From: Candidatus Aenigmatarchaeota archaeon
GTDB lineage: Archaea; Aenigmatarchaeota; Aenigmatarchaeia; GW2011-AR5; JACRAC01
Reading direction: 5' to 3'
NCBI GenBank assembly: GCA_043818435.1
Contig: JBDRFU010000063.1
Span: forward strand, 1 to 5,758
Length of the DNA: 5,758 nt
A program made the position numbers and the translations under genes. This document shows, in pieces, positions 1 to 5,617 of this stretch. The notes below the pieces were generated by a model, which was not told the DNA's origin, made no database searches, and saw only the letters and a program-made list of their open reading frames with translations. Each line of letters begins with the position of its first letter. Positions within the stretch are counted from its first letter, which is position 1.

Positions 1-250
1 CGGACTCTGCGCATGTACGGAAACCAACACACCAACATCATCTGCATTATATCCATACTCAGGCTTATCGTAGCCGATCTCCTTTATTGTATTTCTGACA
101 ATATTTTGTATATCAATCCCAGCCTTTGTAGTAACCTCACCAGCAACAACAACAAGACCAGTCGTGACAAGTGTCTCAATAGCAACTCTTGATTCCTTAT
201 CCTGTTTATACAATTCATCCAGAATCGCATCAGAAATCTGGTCACACACT
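1..250 (-). CDS. metK: S-adenosylmethionine synthetase (bacterial/eukaryal MetK type), proposed exon 2; truncated at the window edge
   Basis: Minus-strand translation from 249 down to 1 gives [83 protein letters not shown]. This is collinear with the well-known MetK N-domain (E. coli ...[40 protein letters not shown]...[28 protein letters not shown]). A250 is the third base of the split Lys codon. The frame is closed just upstream by UGA at 252-250, so it cannot be read through from the N-terminal piece. Confidence 0.9.
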
Positions 251-281
251 CAAGACACCTTTGAATGATCATTCAAAGATT
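251..281 (-). other. Putative 31-nt bulge-helix-bulge (BHB) mini-intron in the metK mRNA
   Basis: Hand fold of the minus-sense RNA. Inner helix h': A280-U257, U279.G258, C278-G259, U277-A260, U276-A261, U275-A262, G274-C263, A273-U264, A272-U265, U271-A266, loop GAUC. First 3-nt bulge: A283 A282 A281. Central 4-bp helix: G287.U253, G286-C254, A285-U255, C284-G256. Second 3-nt bulge, on the opposite strand: U252 G251 A250. Outer helix: C288-G249, C289xU248 mismatch, C290-G247, A291-U246, C292-G245. Cleavage after the 2nd nucleotide of each bulge removes 281..251 (31 nt). The joined sequence is GAC AAA GUG UGU GAC CAG = DKVCDQ, which is in frame. The exact junction is ambiguous within the A-run 280-283. 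Confidence 0.6.
259..278. repeat. Perfect 20-bp palindrome CTTTGAATGA|TCATTCAAAG (core of the intron hairpin)
   Basis: Direct reading: plus strand 259-278 equals its own reverse complement. In the RNA it forms an 8-bp stem plus GAUC loop. The in-frame UGA (271-269) that terminates the unspliced exon-1 frame sits at the apex. Confidence 0.95.
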
Positions 282-343
282 TTGTCCGGGTGACCTTCTG
301 TAACACTCTCTGATGTAAACAGAAAATTTCCACGCCGCATCAT
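282..343 (-). CDS. metK: S-adenosylmethionine synthetase, proposed exon 1 (N-terminal 20 codons plus 2 nt)
   Basis: Minus strand ATG ATG CGG... (343-341 and 340-338 are in-frame ATGs) encodes [21 protein letters not shown], the invariant MetK N-terminus (consensus LFTSESVxEGHPDK). If unspliced, the frame continues IFE and stops at UGA 271-269. The start overlaps the stop of the upstream LAGLIDADG ORF (ATGA, 343-340). A GGAGGTG Shine-Dalgarno-like motif lies at 361-355, with rather long spacing to the start. Confidence 0.85.
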
Positions 344-1218
344 ATATTCTCTTGCACCTCCATTTTATTCAAATTATTACTGAAATTTGCAAACTTTCTT
401 TTCAAATAAATGCGGGAATCTTTATAAATCCAATGGGCCAAACACTTACCTCTGGTACAAGAAAACTGCAGACCAAAGGTATTAGAATGTATTCTTCTAC
501 ACCTAGATTTCACGCCAATATGATTGAAAATCACCTTGCTCAATTTCTTCAAAAATCTTTCTGAACCAGAACATATGGAAATCTCAAAATACGGACTCCT
601 TCGTCTATTAACATACCGAACAGTACCATCGCCATCAATAATACCACGAATGAAATGCCTGACATGATCACTCCTAGTTATATTTTCAGGAAACCTCACA
701 ATCATCGATTTTCTAGGAACAACACCTAAATCTATTAACTTCCGACACAATATCTTGCTTGCAACAATAAGACGATAAGAATTGGTATTCTTAGAATATA
801 ATAAAGGTTTTGTACTTCCCATGAGTCCTCTTATTTTTTCCAGGTGAGCTTTGTCCTTGGATGAAGCAGTTATCGTGAGAGACCAATATGACCTACTAGG
901 ATTCCAAGTCACATTACCATCAGCGAAGATGAAACCTAAGATATAAGATGATTCTTCATTGGGATTATCAAAGAACTCTTCATTTACAATATGTTTAATT
1001 GGATGAAAACCAAACTCATCAACACACCACCTGTTCACTGCTGTCTTACCAATACCAAGTTTTCGCGCCATTTCTCGTTGGGATAGTTTGCCCATGTTAG
1101 ATTCTAAGAATTTCAACATTTCTTTCTTTTTATCAGAACTTATTATTATTCCCATAGTATTATTTATATTATGATCACTTAAATATGATGGATGGCCCTC
1201 AAGAAACTCATTCAGCAT
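340..1218 (-). CDS. Free-standing double-motif LAGLIDADG homing endonuclease with an N-terminal helix-turn-helix extension (292 aa)
   Basis: Two LAGLIDADG motifs are present. [11 protein letters not shown] is at aa 92-102 (nt 945-913) and [11 protein letters not shown] at aa 189-199 (nt 654-622), about 97 aa apart, as in monomeric two-domain enzymes. The motif [13 protein letters not shown] is typical of intein/archaeal-type LAGLIDADG domains. An HTH-like segment [21 protein letters not shown] lies at aa 44-64. ATG is at 1218-1216, preceded by AGGTGA (1228-1223) with 4 nt spacing. No Hint/intein splicing blocks flank the ORF. Confidence 0.9.
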
Positions 1219-1226
1219 AAACTCAC

Positions 1227-1520
1227 CTACAACACAATATCATATACCCGATCTCTCTTAACAAGTATCTCACTTTCACCAAATATCTCAGGATATATTT
1301 CTTTCAACAACTCCACGGCAATAGTTCCATGATTATCCGAATAAGAACACGATTTAAACTCGATCCCACTTATTTTTCCTCCACTATTCGGTCTCCATGT
1401 TTGAAACCCATCAAAACCCGAGTTTACTCCGCCAGGATGATACATTACTTTTTTATTACTTCTCATACTATCACTCACCATATTTACCAACAATACTATA
1501 AGAAGACTAGTCATATCCAT
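1227..1520 (-). CDS. Hypothetical 97-aa protein with an N-terminal hydrophobic segment (possible signal or anchor); no family recognised
   Basis: An open frame is the only strong evidence. I prefer ATG at 1520-1518 (MDMTSLLIVLLVNMVS...). The TTG at 1586 used by the ORF track would abut the divergent gene's ATG and remove the promoter region. Its stop TAG (1229-1227) overlaps the SD of the downstream endonuclease gene, which suggests co-transcription. No motif could be assigned to a known family. Confidence 0.4.
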   Translation of the reverse strand: MDMTSLLIVLLVNMVSDSMRSNKKVMYHPGGVNSGFDGFQTWRPNSGGKISGIEFKSCSYSDNHGTIAVELLKEIYPEIFGESEILVKRDRVYDIVL

Positions 1521-1585
1521 ATGCAGATATTCATAAAAATATGCGTATATTAATAGTTTTCTACGATAAGGAATTAGGGTAAACA
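1521..1585. promoter_or_regulatory. AT-rich divergent intergenic region with TATA-like boxes (putative bidirectional archaeal promoter)
   Basis: This 65-bp region lies between the minus-strand ATG (1520) and the plus-strand ATG (1586). ATAAAAATAT (1533-1542) and TATATTAATA (1546-1555) are TATA-box-like. The second is centred about 35 nt upstream of the plus-strand ATG and about 30 nt upstream of the minus-strand ATG, consistent with short-leader or leaderless archaeal transcripts. No transcription start site data are available. Confidence 0.4.
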
Positions 1586-2110
1586 ATGTTTGATATTAGA
1601 AAACTGAAAGAGATACGAAAAAAACAAGGGATAACTCAGAATGAACTAGCCAAACGCTCAGAAGTCAGTCAATCTCTCATAACCAGGATAGAAAATGGTG
1701 AAGTTGACCCATGTTATAGCAAGGTCCAACGCATAATAAACGCACTAGAACAGACATCTAAAGGAAAGATCGAAGAAATCATGACAAAAAAAATCATCGC
1801 TGTAAAACCTTCTGATGAAATAAAAAAGGCCATACGCATAATGAGGAAACGAGGAATATCTCAATTACCTGTCATAGAAAACGATAAAATTATAGGAACT
1901 GTATCCGAGACCGGAGCATCTACCATAATTCAACACAGATCATTAAAATACGTCAGAGAAATAATAGAACCCTCATTACCTACAATGGACAAGAATAGTT
2001 CGATCCAATCGTGCAACGAGCTTCTCAAACACTGTCCAGCTATCATAATCACAAACAATGGCAAGCTATGCGGCATAGTAACAAAAGCCAATCTATTGAA
2101 GTTGATCTAA
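1586..2110 (+). CDS. Transcriptional regulator with an N-terminal XRE/Cro-type HTH and a C-terminal CBS-domain pair (174 aa)
   Basis: The N-terminus LKEIRKKQGITQNELAKRSEVSQSLITRIENGEVDP is a classic XRE HTH. Two CBS repeats follow: IMTKKIIAVKPSDEIKKAIRIMRKRGISQLPVIENDKIIGTVSE and IIEPSLPTMDKNSSIQSCNELLKHCPAIIITNNGKLCGIVTKANLLK. Its stop TAA (2108-2110) overlaps the next ATG (2110-2112). Confidence 0.85.
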   Translation: MFDIRKLKEIRKKQGITQNELAKRSEVSQSLITRIENGEVDPCYSKVQRIINALEQTSKGKIEEIMTKKIIAVKPSDEIKKAIRIMRKRGISQLPVIENDKIIGTVSETGASTIIQHRSLKYVREIIEPSLPTMDKNSSIQSCNELLKHCPAIIITNNGKLCGIVTKANLLKLI

Positions 2111-2805
2111 TGAAATTCCTCACAGATTATCCAGCAATGATCATCAAAGATTATCTCGTCGTCTCAGACCTACATATAGGCATAACCAAAGGGTTGTATG
2201 ACAAAGGCATATCGATACCGAGCCAGGTTAAAGGAATGATAACCAGAATTCACAAATTAAAGAAAATCGGCAACGCAAAGAACCTAGTCATTCTAGGTGA
2301 CCTCAAACATAGGGTACCTGGGATATCATGGCAGGAAAAGAAAGAAATACCAGAATTTCTATCAAACCTAAAATTCAATAAGATTATACTAATCAAGGGC
2401 AACCATGATGGAAATATAGAAGATCTGATACCAACGAACAAGAAAATCCAAGTCAAGAAGAATCTCATCATCGGAGACTGCTACCTAACACACGGTCATA
2501 TGAATATTGACAAAGATAAGGCCACCCAGATCCAATTTGTCATCATTGGACACAATCAACCACGAATAGCCTTTCAGGATGACATGAAAGCAAAGTATTT
2601 CGAAACTGTATGGATACAAGGATACCTAAAAAACGAAAGAAGAGTAATAATCATACCAGCCTTCAACGAACTCTGTGGCTCAACATTATTCAATAAAAAC
2701 AAGCCAATCGGCCCAATTGCAAAGAATTTGAACTATAAAAAGTCTCATGCATATCTCTTGGACGGAACAGATCTTGGGAAGTTAAACGATTTAAAAAAGG
2801 TGTGA
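2110..2805 (+). CDS. Calcineurin-like metallophosphoesterase (ICC/PdeM-like family that commonly accompanies Lhr helicases), 231 aa
   Basis: Metallophosphoesterase motifs occur in order: VVSDLHIG (DxH), LVILGDLKH (GD), ILIKGNHD (GNHD), LTHGH, IIGHNQP (GH). I prefer the ATG at 2110 (TAATG coupling to the upstream gene) over the track's GTG at 2011. That start would add 33 aa read out of frame over the CBS gene. Confidence 0.85.
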   Translation: MKFLTDYPAMIIKDYLVVSDLHIGITKGLYDKGISIPSQVKGMITRIHKLKKIGNAKNLVILGDLKHRVPGISWQEKKEIPEFLSNLKFNKIILIKGNHDGNIEDLIPTNKKIQVKKNLIIGDCYLTHGHMNIDKDKATQIQFVIIGHNQPRIAFQDDMKAKYFETVWIQGYLKNERRVIIIPAFNELCGSTLFNKNKPIGPIAKNLNYKKSHAYLLDGTDLGKLNDLKKV

Positions 2806-2824: not shown

Positions 2825-5617
2825 ATGAAATTCACAATATTCTCAAAAAAAATGCAGGAACTTATCAAGGAAAAGGGATTCGCTGAACCAACACTAGCCC
2901 AGAAAATGGGAATACCCGAGATCATGAAAGGTAGTGATGTTTTAATAATAGCACCCACCGGCATTGGAAAAACCGAAACCGCCATGCTAGGGTTATTCGA
3001 TAAGATACATCAGGAAAAAACCAAACCAATATCGATTCTATACTTAACACCAATGCGATCATTGAACAGAGATCTTCTATCAAGACTGCATTGGTGGGCT
3101 AAGAAACTGGATCTAGAAATAAGCATTCGGCATGGAGACACCACACAAACAGAAAGGACTTCCCAAAGGGAGTGTCCACCAAACATATTGATATCAACTC
3201 CCGAGAGTCTACAGGCCCTTCTCGTCGGAAAGAGGATGCGAGAGCATATGAAAAACGTCAGGCATGTTGTCATTGACGAAATTCATGAACTAGTTCCAAG
3301 CAAAAGAGGAATCCAACTAGCAGTTGCCCTAGAACGACTTCAAGAACTGACAGGACCACTTCAAAGAATAGGATTGTCAGCAACTATCGGAAACCCTGAG
3401 ATGGTAGCGAAGTTTCTTGGAAAAGCCACAAAGATAATAAGAGCTGATGCAGAAAAAAAATACAATATAAAAATTGAGAATCCAAAACCAAACACAAACG
3501 ACATTCAACTATCCGAGGAGTTGTTTACGAAACCTAACACGATTGCAAGATTAAAAAAACTTCATGAATTGATTCTATCACATAAAAGCGTGCTTATATT
3601 TTCCAATACACGAGAAACTGCAGAGATTCTTTCCTCGAGAATGAGAAGAATTGATAAAGAACTTCGACAGGAAGTCCATCACGGATCTCTCTCGAAAGAA
3701 AAACGCATCACAAGCGAACAGAAGTTCAAAACCGAAGAACTGAAATCTCTGATAGCTACATCATCATTAGAACTTGGTATAGATATAGGCTCAATAGATC
3801 TGGTAATCCAATACCTTTCCCCAAGACAGGTATCTAGAATCGTTCAGAGAGTTGGTCGCTCTGGGCATGGTGTAGGTCTAACCAGTAAGGGAATAATAAT
3901 ATCCGGAGAGGAAGATCTGTTCGAATCATCTGCAATCGCAAAAAATGCAAGAGAAAAGAAAATAGAACAAATACATATCCACGATTCCGCCCTTGATGTT
4001 CTAGCAACACAGGTAATAGGTCTCTGTATGGAATATTATGACATCACTGATGATAAAATCTATCAGATAATAAAACGTGCATACCCGTTCAGAGAATTGA
4101 AACGAAAGGAATTCGATGAAGTGATACGATTCTTAGAATTGTTGAGAATCATATGGATAAACGAATCCACAACCGGGCTTATAATATCAAAACGGAAGAA
4201 AGCCTGGGAGTATTACTTCGAAAACATGAGCATGATTCCTGACTCCAAGAGCTATAGGGTGGTGTCCATAATACAGGGAGAACCCATAGGAACACTGGAC
4301 GCAGAATTCATCTCAGAACACGGTAAACCTGGAGAGAAATTTGTGGTATCAGGCAGAGCCTGGAAGATAATTCAGATCGATGGAGACAAAGTCATAGTCG
4401 AACCCACAGATGATATAGAATCCGCCATACCTGCATGGGAAGGAGAACTCATTCCAGTCCCGTTTGACATAGCCCAGGAAGTTGGTAGAATACGGAAGGA
4501 ACTATCAAAGATCAAGAATGAAGATGAAGAAAAGAAAATAAAAGAGAAATATCAACTAGATAAAAATTCCATAAAAGAAATGATGGAGATAATCGAAAAA
4601 CAAACCAAAAAATCCATTCTACCAACCGATGACACATTCCTAGTAGAATCCTACAAGGACTTCGTAATAATACACTCTTGTTGTGGCTCGCTAATAAACG
4701 ATACCATAGGACGATATCTAGCAGCCATGATAACAGCAAAAACAGGAGTAGCGGTCAACCTGAAAATAGATCCATACAGAATAATGATTCAGACAACTGC
4801 CACACTAGATGATATAGTAAAAGAACTGAAAGAAATCGACGACATGAAAAAGGTTCTTGAGATCGCTCTTGAACGATCATCATTATTCAAACATAGATTC
4901 ATGCAAGTCGCTAAGAGATTTGGTATAGTCTCAAGGAGAACACAATTCGAAAGGATAGGTGTTGGTAAGATAATATCACAATATGAAAATTCTCCTGTCT
5001 TCAAAGAAACCCTCAAAGAGATATTTGTAAATAAAATGGATATAACTGGGGCCAATAGAGTCATGAAAATGATAAAGAACGGTGATATCAAACTCAAGAT
5101 AAAAACCGGTGGGGATGTGAGCTATCTAGGAGAACTCGGACTCATCCACCAGTTCTCAGAAGTTATGAAACCAAAGATACCAAACCAGGAGATATTCAAT
5201 GCATTCAAAAAGAGATTGCTATGCACGCGTGTCAGACTGTTATGTATCCATTGCGCTGATTATAATCTTGTAAAGGAAGTACGCGATATTGAAGAACAAC
5301 CCGAATGCCCAAAATGCGGTTCTCGTCTAATAGGTATCGCACACAAGAACCAAGACATCACACGTATTCTTAAGAAACGTATCAAGAAAAAAGAACTTAC
5401 ACCAGAAGAACTCAGGGAATTCGAGAATCTAACCCGCTCTGCAGATCTTGTTATGGTGTATGGAAAAAAATGTATCATGGTTTTAGCAGGACGTGGCATC
5501 GGTCCAGAAACCGCAGCGCGAATCCTTTCGCACCTTCATCCAGACCAAGAAAAACTTCTGCGCGACGTACTTGAGGCAGAGAAAACGTTTGCGAGAACAA
5601 GTGTGTACTGGAAATAG
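2825..5617 (+). CDS. lhr: Lhr-type superfamily-2 DExH ATP-dependent helicase (930 aa) with a DEAD/H-associated domain and a C-terminal zinc ribbon
   Basis: Helicase motifs: motif I APTGIGKT (nt 2951-2974), YLTPMRSLNRD, RHGDTTQTER, ILISTPESL, motif II DEIH (nt 3275-3286), LSATIGN, FSNTRETAE, HHGSLSKEKR, ATSSLELGIDIG, and motif VI QRVGRSGH. The Lhr-associated region LPTDDTFLVESYKDFVIIHSCCGSLINDTIGRYLA follows. A CxxC...CPxCG zinc ribbon (CIHCADY...CPKCGS) lies near the C-terminus. GGTGAT SD is at 2814-2819, 5 nt before the ATG. Confidence 0.95.
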   Translation: MKFTIFSKKMQELIKEKGFAEPTLAQKMGIPEIMKGSDVLIIAPTGIGKTETAMLGLFDKIHQEKTKPISILYLTPMRSLNRDLLSRLHWWAKKLDLEISIRHGDTTQTERTSQRECPPNILISTPESLQALLVGKRMREHMKNVRHVVIDEIHELVPSKRGIQLAVALERLQELTGPLQRIGLSATIGNPEMVAKFLGKATKIIRADAEKKYNIKIENPKPNTNDIQLSEELFTKPNTIARLKKLHELILSHKSVLIFSNTRETAEILSSRMRRIDKELRQEVHHGSLSKEKRITSEQKFKTEELKSLIATSSLELGIDIGSIDLVIQYLSPRQVSRIVQRVGRSGHGVGLTSKGIIISGEEDLFESSAIAKNAREKKIEQIHIHDSALDVLATQVIGLCMEYYDITDDKIYQIIKRAYPFRELKRKEFDEVIRFLELLRIIWINESTTGLIISKRKKAWEYYFENMSMIPDSKSYRVVSIIQGEPIGTLDAEFISEHGKPGEKFVVSGRAWKIIQIDGDKVIVEPTDDIESAIPAWEGELIPVPFDIAQEVGRIRKELSKIKNEDEEKKIKEKYQLDKNSIKEMMEIIEKQTKKSILPTDDTFLVESYKDFVIIHSCCGSLINDTIGRYLAAMITAKTGVAVNLKIDPYRIMIQTTATLDDIVKELKEIDDMKKVLEIALERSSLFKHRFMQVAKRFGIVSRRTQFERIGVGKIISQYENSPVFKETLKEIFVNKMDITGANRVMKMIKNGDIKLKIKTGGDVSYLGELGLIHQFSEVMKPKIPNQEIFNAFKKRLLCTRVRLLCIHCADYNLVKEVRDIEEQPECPKCGSRLIGIAHKNQDITRILKKRIKKKELTPEELREFENLTRSADLVMVYGKKCIMVLAGRGIGPETAARILSHLHPDQEKLLRDVLEAEKTFARTSVYWK

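Follow-up and report, generated by a model that had tools for sequence, protein, structure and literature searches.

Phages have protective inserts beside homing endonuclease genes (HEGs), and fungal mitochondria have endonuclease elements that replace the end of their host gene; neither arrangement has been reported from archaea or in combination with a bulge-helix-bulge (BHB) intron. In phage T4, the gene 60 insert of 50 nt lies beside the homing endonuclease gene mobA (PMC5009743). This short non-coding insert is thought to protect the target of the nuclease and is removed at expression, by translational bypassing (PMC5009743). In the cyanophage S-PM2 psbA intron with F-CphI, and in T4 mobE with the I-TevIII intron, a free-standing nuclease gene adjoins an ORF-less, self-splicing group I intron, and alleles that lack the intron are cut at the site that it interrupts (PMC6083498, PMC2790892). 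The fungal mORF hybrids (Allomyces atp6; Glomus atp6, atp9, cox2 and nad3) are LAGLIDADG or GIY-YIG insertions with a replacement gene end, and the native end persists as a diverging duplicate whose differences are mostly synonymous (PMC3630166). Short BHB introns of 16-44 bp that have no HEG occur in the protein-coding sequence of crenarchaeal cbf5 (PMC2738675), and in 2020 cbf5 was the only additional archaeal mRNA BHB intron reported, apart from a Haloferax 5' UTR case (PMC7714728).

The DNA analyzed here, which we call the window, is a stretch of 5,758 nt from a Candidatus Aenigmatarchaeota archaeon. It contains a LAGLIDADG HEG and, directly after it, the first part of a bacterial-type metK, whose GHPDK motif is split by 31 nt. 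The product of metK is SAM synthetase, and the host organisms are tiny DPANN archaea. We consider it probable (roughly 0.6, judging from sequence) that the locus is a metK-specific homing cassette that would carry a replacement 5' gene end and regenerate a target that needs disabling. The features of the window are as follows.

340..1218, minus strand: LAGLIDADG homing endonuclease gene (292-aa entry in the ORF list, and Pfam)
1174..1218, minus strand: copy 1, the decayed original metK 5' end, forming HEG codons 1-15 (clearer copies in relatives)
355..361, minus strand: Shine-Dalgarno-like GGAGGTG inside the HEG 3' coding end, a putative signal for metK (sequence reading)
282..343, minus strand: metK exon 1, or copy 2, the replacement 5' end, whose last bases are the AA of a Lys codon (cut set by the BHB register)
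251..281, minus strand: 31-nt BHB mini-intron, AAUCUUUGAAUGAUCAUUCAAAGGUGUCUUG (strict BHB search)
240..295, minus strand: entire BHB motif including exon helix H1 (strict search and folding)
1..250, minus strand: metK exon 2, partial, continuing beyond the window (frame and Pfam)
1586..2110, plus strand: divergent HTH_3 and CBS-pair gene, a conserved neighbour by which both the locus and its empty site can be recognised (Pfam)

As at T4 mobA/gene 60, an HEG is inserted in a gene, and the coding sequence beside it is interrupted by a short insert that is non-coding. The T4 system differs in using translational bypassing and an HNH enzyme, and in having its host gene split into two genes, whereas the metK locus has a BHB intron, a LAGLIDADG enzyme, an archaeal host and one metK gene with a duplicated 5' end. 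The nuclease gene adjoins an ORF-less intron, as in the psbA/F-CphI and mobE/I-TevIII pairs, but the metK intron is a 31-nt BHB intron that would depend on host enzymes, and in most relatives, unlike in these collaborative-homing phage systems, it is replaced by a one-base insertion or by substitutions. The fungal mORFs, which the duplicated end recalls, replace the C-terminal end of their host gene; the metK cassette replaces the N-terminal end, leaves the native 5' end fused to the HEG, sits in an archaeal host and has an added intron or frameshift layer. The cbf5 intron is likewise a short ORF-less BHB intron, but it lies in another gene and phylum, its motifs are often relaxed, and it has no linked HEG.

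The HEG stop codon (TGA, 342..340) overlaps the metK start codon (ATG, 343..341) to give ATGA, and the insert starts 62 nt past this ATG, within GHPDK. Both observations agree with the original prediction, which had described the overlap and an intron about 60 nt further downstream in a conserved metK motif. A second ATG follows immediately, at 340..338. GGAGG was also present ahead of the metK start in most related loci. Without splicing, the metK frame reads GHPDKIFE and then meets a stop codon; once the 31 nt were conceptually removed, the product matched PF00438 with E=2e-44. The ends of the insert are ambiguous by 1-3 nt from the letters of this one sequence, and the BHB cut rule fixes them at 281..251.

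By structure and by frame restoration, the 31-nt insert is a strict BHB intron. Helix 2 consists of 4 bp (GGAC, 287-284, with GUCU, 256-253), the bulges are on opposite strands and have 3 nt each (AAA, 283-281; UGA, 252-250), and helix 3 is a 10-bp hairpin (280-271 with 266-257). Exon helix H1 pairs 292-288 with 249-245 (4/5 pairs) and is joined by a distal GGUCAC/GUGACC pairing. If the bulges are cut after their second nucleotide, the product reads EGHPDKVCDQ, with the intron falling between bases 2 and 3 of the Lys codon; this register agrees with the rule for crenarchaeal cbf5, where the cut separates residues 2 and 3 of the bulge (PMC2738675). The same register was found in 8 loci, with introns of 21, 29, 30, 31 and 33 nt, and this one register with the canonical cut restored the frame and GHPDK(V/M)(C/A)D in 8/8, with intron lengths that differ modulo 3. 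Helices 2 and 3 were 100% paired and five pairs had compensatory changes, a modest number from only 7 sequences. In these 7 sequences, 0/500 shuffles reached the observed covariation score, and slid controls were 18-75% paired. H1 is the weak helix of the motif: it was 86% paired with one C.U mismatch, and it had no covariation because it is coding. From the motif and the restored frame, we infer that the intron is spliced.

An alternative register (GACA/UGUC) was also a strict BHB and was rejected because its product was out of frame in every locus. We also rejected a group I or group II self-splicing intron, for which 31 nt is too short; Rfam covariance models gave no match at E<=1 anywhere in the window. 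The splicing genes EndA and RtcB were not present on the 5.8-kb contig. An intein was rejected as well: the HEG ends in a stop codon, metK has a separate ATG and Shine-Dalgarno sequence from which to restart, and there was only a weak Hom_end match. Finally, the original prediction had pointed to an inverted repeat flanking the spliced junction as possible nuclease half-sites. The repeat is there, with GGTCAC (295-290) and GTGACC (245-240) 13 nt apart after splicing; since these are the Gly-His and Asp-Gln codons, the palindrome is lost in relatives, and the RNA forms the distal exon helix, it is not evidence for nuclease half-sites.

The 292-aa product of the HEG, predicted from the start to be a LAGLIDADG protein with intact motif D/G positions, matched Pfam LAGLIDADG_3 in two stretches (E=4.3e-12; 46.5 bits against a cut-off of 22.5), and its N-terminal region had a weak match to HTH_3. 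An AlphaFold2 model (pLDDT 87, pTM 0.80; residues 1-22 disordered) has a metK-derived disordered N-terminus, a helix-turn-helix region and then two LAGLIDADG domains, and the model together with Foldseek indicates the pseudo-symmetric alpha-beta-beta-alpha-beta-beta-alpha double-domain fold. The best Foldseek matches were I-Tsp061I (E=7e-12), I-LtrWI, I-AniI and I-DmoI, and the maturases bI3 and I-AniI were also among the fold matches. The closest solved structures, I-Tsp061I and I-DmoI (sequence E=1e-9; fold E=7e-12, TM 0.68-0.72), are double-motif monomers from BHB introns. Their genes lie inside the intron that is mobilised, whereas the metK HEG lies outside and 5' of the mini-intron and encodes the extra N-terminal HTH region. 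The motif aspartates, D100 (in FADG) and D197 (in DGDG), were invariant across 30 homologues, as were G101, D195, G196 and G198 in the same alignment. Sequence and fold thus point to a double-motif monomeric LAGLIDADG homing enzyme that is probably an active nuclease.

We found 192 homologues of this protein, with identities of 45-63%. The family is one tight cluster at 50% identity and occupies one locus throughout, a pattern that would also suit a fixed gene, possibly domesticated, that has long been passed on vertically. More distant LAGLIDADG loci (L027-L080; Bacillaceae, Chloroflexi and CPR) have no metK nearby and were set aside. A lookup of the exact protein returned no record, and an IMG/VR scan for a viral origin returned relatives of at most 35% identity, on which grounds a viral origin was dropped.

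The HEG is directly followed by metK in 36/36 related loci from several DPANN lineages, and the CBS gene lies upstream of the pair in at least 20 loci. The ORFs in the gap between the CBS gene and the HEG were unrelated between loci, with no conserved gene among them. Two alleles (L090 and L137) are empty sites in which the CBS gene adjoins metK and there is no HEG. In other loci the HEG is decaying, by TGG>TAG changes (L003 and L022), a frameshift (L025) or truncation (L026). This decay fits the life cycle of a homing endonuclease, and the locus thus has both presence/absence polymorphism and degenerate HEG copies. The exon-2 ORFs were intact, at 362-417 aa, in all 22 relatives with the ORF wholly inside the fetched locus, and no interrupted allele with a complete ORF was an exception.

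The HEG had been described as free-standing, and here the original prediction has to be revised, because the gene sits in the 5' coding region of metK, begins with a remnant of the metK 5' end and brings a replacement for it. HEG codons 1-15 (1218..1174) correspond to the metK 5' end in decayed form, and this copy 1 is clearer in relatives such as L241 and L244 (MRGSNGKYPFTSEAMAEGHPVYLSD). Of the 20 codons compared between copies 1 and 2 of L244, 7 have synonymous and 3 have non-synonymous differences. Such differences are expected between two metK starts that had each been functional, one in the recipient and the other in the donor. The original prediction had proposed a check for a break in composition over 340-1586, and there was none: GC was 0.33-0.37 across 340-1586 and 0.34-0.46 in the flanks.

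We compared the site of the intron between alleles with and without the HEG. The canonical site was defined, after inspection of the data, as an uninterrupted EGHPDK(I/V/L/M)CD, with the junction DNA written as GAAGGTCACCCGGACAAAGTGTGTGACCAG / ACAGAAGGTCACCCGGACAAAGTGTGTGACCAGATT; the variant site DNAs are the site with one added T (CATCCTTGACAAG), the copy-1 site (GGCCATCCATCATATTTAAGTGAT) and the frameshift-type stretch (GAAGGGCATCCTTGACAAG). HEG-bearing loci were sampled through the HEG, and metagenome metK matches listed, which served as HEG-less controls, were mostly bacterial, with few close ones (n = 7). The canonical site was kept in 0/36 HEG-bearing loci and in 7/7 related HEG-less alleles (p=3e-8), and the site was interrupted in 22/36 HEG-bearing loci and in 0/76 of the HEG-less alleles listed with enough upstream sequence (p=3e-14), where the alleles in both comparisons are phylogenetically non-independent. 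All 79 HEG-less alleles among the matches listed were uninterrupted. An altered site in every HEG-bearing allele is what a protective insert in a putative nuclease target predicts.

The HEG-bearing sites fell into three states: the intron (8/36), a one-base insertion giving CAY CCY TGA CAA, a candidate +1 frameshift site (14/36), and substitutions (14/36). HEG and intron are therefore not in strict co-occurrence. In the neighbour-joining trees of HEG and MetK alike, the three states were intermixed. The added T, the intron insertion point and the point at which copy 1 departs from metK all lie within about 15 bp. Uninterrupted HEG-bearing alleles changed even conserved residues (P>A in L016; G>A in L021 and L026). 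The Cys was kept in 20/22 interrupted and 3/14 uninterrupted HEG-bearing alleles (p=4e-5, again with phylogenetically non-independent alleles). Ala in place of Cys is common at this site in HEG-less bacteria. The idea of a collaborative-homing cassette in the original prediction is thus largely supported as to the cassette, by the adjacency in 36/36 loci, the empty sites and the altered sites. Strict pairing of intron and HEG is only partly supported: the insert never occurred without the HEG (0/76 of the HEG-less loci listed with enough upstream sequence), but the intron is one of three solutions. None of the HEG-less loci listed had an interrupted allele, though conversion of the intron only would be expected sometimes.

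The one-base insertions of the relatives, which are not found in the window, resemble the prfB site CUU_UGA_C, the antizyme site UCC_UGA, and CCC_UGA of Listeria phages and pheL, with a P-site codon, UGA and then C (PMC5009743). CCC_UGA is a documented +1 shift site (PMC5009743). The likeness to prfB includes an SD-like GAAGGG and a 3-nt spacer ahead of CCU UGA C, and the GGG Gly codon was enriched at the frameshift-type sites (9/14 vs 2/22). Unlike the known frameshift sites, the insertion would be a 'savior' change that shields DNA from a nuclease; the frameshifting is predicted. Archaea have no established case of a cellular +1 frameshift (PMC8211752). A long-range BHB that would span copies 1 and 2 and excise the HEG, making the added T irrelevant, was also considered and was rejected, because the search gave no consistent motif leading to a MetK N-terminus (L241, L242, L244, L002 and L012). 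A MetK protein search for truncated gene calls returned short fragments only.

In the mechanism that we propose, a cassette would have inserted into metK, within its 5' coding region. The start of the resident gene (copy 1) would have become the N-terminus of the HEG and its expression signal, and the 3' end of the cassette would supply a ribosome-binding site and the replacement 5' end (copy 2). Joining copy 2 to the rest of metK would recreate the probable target of the nuclease, the DNA for EGHPDK-x-CD, so that the target DNA must be disabled and the protein kept. In the genome of the window, the BHB intron in the Lys codon would disable the target DNA, and the archaeal tRNA-splicing endonuclease and ligase would excise it from the mRNA to give GHPDKVCDQ. 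Some relatives would use a one-base insertion, passed by +1 ribosomal frameshifting at CCY_UGA_C, and in others amino-acid substitutions would disable the target. More tentatively, and with somewhat less confidence than in the cassette itself, we suggest that one HEG drove three independent solutions at a single essential-motif block in DPANN (BHB intron, CCY_UGA_C frameshift and forced substitutions), and that the duplicated metK 5' end serves the spreading cassette as upstream homology arm.

Of the other explanations, the least improbable, though still unlikely, is that the HEG product is a domesticated and immobile LAGLIDADG-HTH protein that serves the host, for instance by binding DNA to regulate metK or by acting as an RNA chaperone, with the intron or +1 site tuning MetK synthesis in an autoregulation like that of RF2 or antizyme. 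The constant locus (36/36), the single tight cluster, the N-terminal HTH region, the maturases among the fold matches and the prfB-like sites with their GGG codon would suit such a role. However, both catalytic aspartates are invariant, some HEGs are pseudogenes and one is truncated beside an intact metK, and there are empty sites; moreover, in 14/36 HEG-bearing loci there is no interruption that could be regulated, a maturase is not required for BHB splicing, and the layout of copies 1 and 2 is that of an insertion and not of a regulator gene. A little less probable is that the HEG is real and the interruptions are unrelated to immunity from it, being tolerated lesions or independently mobile mini-introns in DPANN metK. 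The HEG-less short introns of cbf5 (16-44 bp; PMC2738675) show that such introns exist, and truly close HEG-less controls are few (n=7), but only in HEG-bearing loci do three types of change fall together within ~15 bp, conserved residues are altered in the uninterrupted alleles, and retention of the Cys correlates with interruption.

It is far less likely that the ribosome skips the 31 nt by translational bypass, as it does the 50-nt gap of T4 gene 60. A stop codon soon after the break (GHPDKIFE*), a stable hairpin at the take-off region and the T4 precedent, which couples such an insert with a homing endonuclease (PMC5009743), would fit bypassing. Against it, neither the window nor the relatives have a matched pair of take-off and landing codons giving GHPDK-x-CDQ, the insert fits a strict BHB whose cut rule alone restores the frame in 8/8 loci of differing intron length, and the compensatory changes in helix 2 are unneeded for bypassing. 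We give the least credence of all to an assembly error, or to a dead metK in this genome. The window is a single low-coverage MAG contig with only 103 metK codons, which would allow such a reading, but seven further assemblies, all independent, have a homologous insert at this position, with intact ORFs downstream (364-413 aa), and covariation keeps the BHB structure.

If the homing-cassette reading is correct, metK would provide the second protein-coding family of BHB introns after cbf5, with a selective reason for existing, and the site in the relatives would be a strong candidate for programmed +1 frameshifting of a cellular archaeal gene, the first of its kind. The natural allele series of intron, +1 indel, substitution and empty site would define the target of the nuclease. 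If, beyond this, one HEG did drive all three solutions, nuclease pressure would be one way in which mRNA introns and programmed frameshifts arise in archaea. In these genomes, gene calls split or truncate metK or fuse it to the HEG (P0003, P0018 and P0024), so metabolic reconstructions of DPANN archaea may wrongly score SAM synthesis as absent.

The TGA stop codon (342..340) of the LAGLIDADG homing-endonuclease gene (HEG) overlaps the ATG (343..341) of a bacterial-type metK, the gene for SAM synthetase. Direct reading confirmed the coordinates of the original prediction, its ATGA overlap, the insert of 31 nt and the GGTCAC/GTGACC repeat. The features are as follows (BHB, bulge-helix-bulge):

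343..282, minus strand: metK exon 1 (BHB register)
281..251, minus strand: predicted 31-nt BHB intron (strict BHB register)
from 250 on, minus strand: metK exon 2 (BHB register)
1218..340, minus strand: LAGLIDADG HEG ORF, 292 aa (ORF call and Pfam)
1227-1586, minus strand: 119-aa ORF between the CBS gene and the HEG (no Pfam or NCBIfam match)
1586-2110, plus strand: divergent HTH_3 + CBS-pair gene
2110-2805, plus strand: metallophosphoesterase gene
2825-5617, plus strand: Lhr-type helicase gene, 930 aa

Comparison with related loci (L-numbers) indicates that the HEG sits within metK, not beside it. In many HEG homologues, the first residues are a divergent version of the MetK N-terminus (copy 1), as seen in the window, L241, L242 (MAKITFVTSESLVEGRPSYLSD) and L244 (MRGSNGKYPFTSEAMAEGHPVYLSD). 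Copy 1 resembles GHPDK-x-CD as far as the Asp, with DK always replaced by x-Tyr. The HEG stop is followed by a GGAGG box and then a second, complete metK start (copy 2), which lies a few to ~150 nt past the stop, or overlaps it, in all 36 examinable loci. The predicted adjacency of HEG and metK thus held throughout; the description of the HEG as free-standing did not, as the gene appears to be inserted in metK with a metK-derived N-terminus. In L244, the two copies have lineage-specific residues in common and show 7 synonymous and 3 non-synonymous differences in 20 codons. Mobile-ORF hybrids of fungal mitochondria have been described with the same pattern between native and imported gene ends (PMC3630166), and in architecture the metK cassette is an N-terminal mirror image of these hybrids. 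Three public gene calls for homologous proteins (P0003, P0018, P0024) either join metK exon 1 onto the C-terminal end of the HEG or lack the first ~20 residues of MetK, so the metK annotation of these genomes is wrong.

The HEG protein matched Pfam LAGLIDADG_3 in two stretches (E=4.3e-12), with a weak N-terminal HTH match, and by sequence it matched no solved structure other than 2dch. In a fold search, its AlphaFold2 model (pLDDT 87; residues 1-22 disordered) best matched I-Tsp061I and also matched I-DmoI, both LAGLIDADG enzymes from BHB introns in archaeal rRNA. There were 192 homologues at 45-63% identity, the named ones from Woesearchaeota, Aenigmatarchaeota and other DPANN archaea, and clustering at 50% reduced the family to one full-length representative, apart from ~9,000 more distant LAGLIDADG clusters. 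We checked whether the acidic residues of the LAGLIDADG motifs are degenerate in homologues, and the catalytic aspartates proved invariant in both motifs of the alignment. The HEG itself is degenerate in four loci, each with metK still intact alongside: TGG is changed to TAG at conserved Trp codons (L003:975, L022:3711), the frame is shifted in L025 (~6413-6423), and the C-terminal half is lost in L026 (297-620). Distant LAGLIDADG_3 relatives (24-35% identical; L027-L080 and L161-L240) were present in Bacillaceae, Chloroflexi, CPR bacteria and viral contigs; no metK was found near these genes at the bacterial loci L027-L080.

The probable target region in metK was altered in every HEG-bearing locus. 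Eight of the 36 have the predicted BHB intron, 14 have a single extra T (CAY CCY TGA CAA), and 14 are uninterrupted, all of these deviating from E-G-H-P-D-K-[IVLM]-C-D (Cys to Ala, Ser or Met; Gly to Ala; Glu to Pro, Ile or Ala; Pro to Ala in L016). HEG-less loci came from a metagenome scan seeded with exon 2 only; among the matches listed there were at least 79, every one uninterrupted. By Fisher tests, which ignore shared ancestry, interruption was associated with the HEG (22/36 HEG-bearing vs 0/76 HEG-less loci that had sufficient sequence upstream among the matches listed, p=3e-14; intron 8/36 vs 0/76), and Cys was retained in 20/22 interrupted but 3/14 uninterrupted HEG-bearing alleles (p=4e-5). 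The canonical uninterrupted site, defined after data inspection, was found in 0/36 HEG-bearing loci and kept in 7/7 HEG-less loci from the DPANN-like MetK clade or with CBS synteny (p=3e-8, same test and same caveat on ancestry). These statistics are strong hints, not proof, of a tie between HEG presence and an altered target region. The site of intron insertion, the extra T and the position where copy 1 diverges from metK all fall within ~15 bp, about the length of a LAGLIDADG recognition site. The exon-2 ORF is intact (362-417 aa) in every locus that contains it in full, among them all 12 of the interrupted relatives checked. The original interpretation as a collaborative-homing cassette was partly supported, and the comparison extends it, with the extra T and substitutions replacing the intron in 28/36 loci.

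The unedited metK frame of the window runs into a stop; once the 31 nt are deleted, it matches S-AdoMet_synt_N cleanly (E=2e-44). RNA folding paired GGUCAC with GUGACC in an outer helix that encloses a 4-bp inner helix, an AAA bulge and a 10-bp hairpin. Seven relatives have inserts at the same position (21, 29, 30, 31, 31, 31 and 33 nt). We listed all strict BHB motifs per locus (4-bp helix, two 3-nt bulges, inner helix of at least 3 bp). A single register per locus yields a full-length in-frame MetK N-terminus, ...EGHPDK(V/M)(C/A)D(Q/K)..., although the insert lengths differ modulo 3, in line with the ORF-less mini-intron predicted for the window. The shared register has a central helix 2 of [G/A]GAY paired with RUC[U/C] and bulges of AAA and UGA, UUA or ACA, and its cut positions agree with the published rule, by which the cut falls after the second of the three bulge residues (PMC2738675). 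In a trimmed alignment, helix 2 and the inner hairpin (helix 3) were 100% paired, with both sides changed in five pairs; 0 of 500 shuffles reached the observed pairing score, and slid controls were 18-75% paired. Pairing in the exon helix was weaker, at 86% with one C.U mismatch, and as coding sequence this helix is unable to covary. An Rfam scan gave no match. Translational bypass as an alternative was rejected, there being no matched take-off and landing codons. The pairing pattern argues that the insert is a BHB intron, presumably removed by splicing. We group it with the crenarchaeal cbf5 mRNA intron, described in 2020 as the one further BHB intron on record for archaeal mRNA, barring a Haloferax 5' UTR case (PMC7714728).

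The extra base occurs in L002, L003, L007, L012, L022, L024, L025, L241, L242, L244, L246, L247, L248 and L250. All 14 alleles read (G)GG CAY CCY UGA CAA at the GHP|DK codons (e.g. L241:2689-2702) with an intact downstream ORF, and skipping the U puts them back in frame. The site has a prfB-like layout, with an SD-like GAAGGG, a 3-nt spacer and CCU UGA C. A +1 shift at CCC_UGA has been documented, as have "savior indels" offset by frameshifting (PMC5009743). Codon choice differs from that of the other HEG-bearing alleles (GGG 9/14 vs 2/22, CAT 13/14 vs 6/22, CCY 14/14 vs 8/22), a difference that may stem from selection for a prfB-like context or from nothing more than shared descent. A long-range BHB excising the extra base was rejected, as L241, L242, L244, L002 and L012 had no consistent motif. 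The insertion is thus a candidate for programmed +1 ribosomal frameshifting; if true, it would be the first cellular case in archaea, where reviews report none established (PMC8211752).

In the mechanism that we infer, a metK-specific LAGLIDADG nuclease would cut DNA encoding GHPDK-x-CD in naive alleles, and repair would copy the cassette, with the metK 5' end (copy 1 in the donor) as one homology arm and the metK body as the other. In the recipient, the resident metK start would become the HEG N-terminus and promoter-proximal start, and copy 2, with its SD, would restore metK. Because joining copy 2 to the metK body would bring the target back, this junction would carry a disabling change, in the window the 31-nt BHB intron, that is undone or tolerated at expression. 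The cassette would work in the same way as T4 mobA/gene 60 (PMC5009743) and as the trans homing of the psbA intron/F-CphI and mobE/I-TevIII (PMC6083498, PMC2790892). We found no earlier description in literature on LAGLIDADG and SAM synthetase in archaea, or on BHB and protein-coding genes in DPANN.

A divergent HTH_3 + CBS gene lies upstream of HEG-metK in at least 20/36 loci, including the window, and directly adjoins metK in the HEG-less metagenome loci L090 and L137, which are empty sites. Because CBS domains often bind adenosyl ligands, this gene may be a SAM-sensing regulator of metK. The 119-aa ORF of the window had no counterpart in the related loci. The gap between the CBS gene and HEG is generally 370-870 nt of unrelated sequence in intron-type loci, vs only 19-150 nt in +1-type loci. 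Two +1-type cassettes (L022, L025) are on contigs binned as CPR bacteria (Nealsonbacteria, Saccharibacteria), and their MetK clusters away from DPANN MetK; either mis-binning or cross-domain spread would account for this placement. Bacteria are not known to splice BHB introns. In L242 (4075-6381), a 768-aa metK gene call has Intein_splicing and LAGLIDADG_3 matches inside the C-terminal domain, indicating a second mobile element, of the intein type, in the same metK. Of the relatives found, L244 is the closest in synteny: there too, the CBS, metallophosphoesterase and Lhr trio flanks the cassette (Lhr 68% identical).
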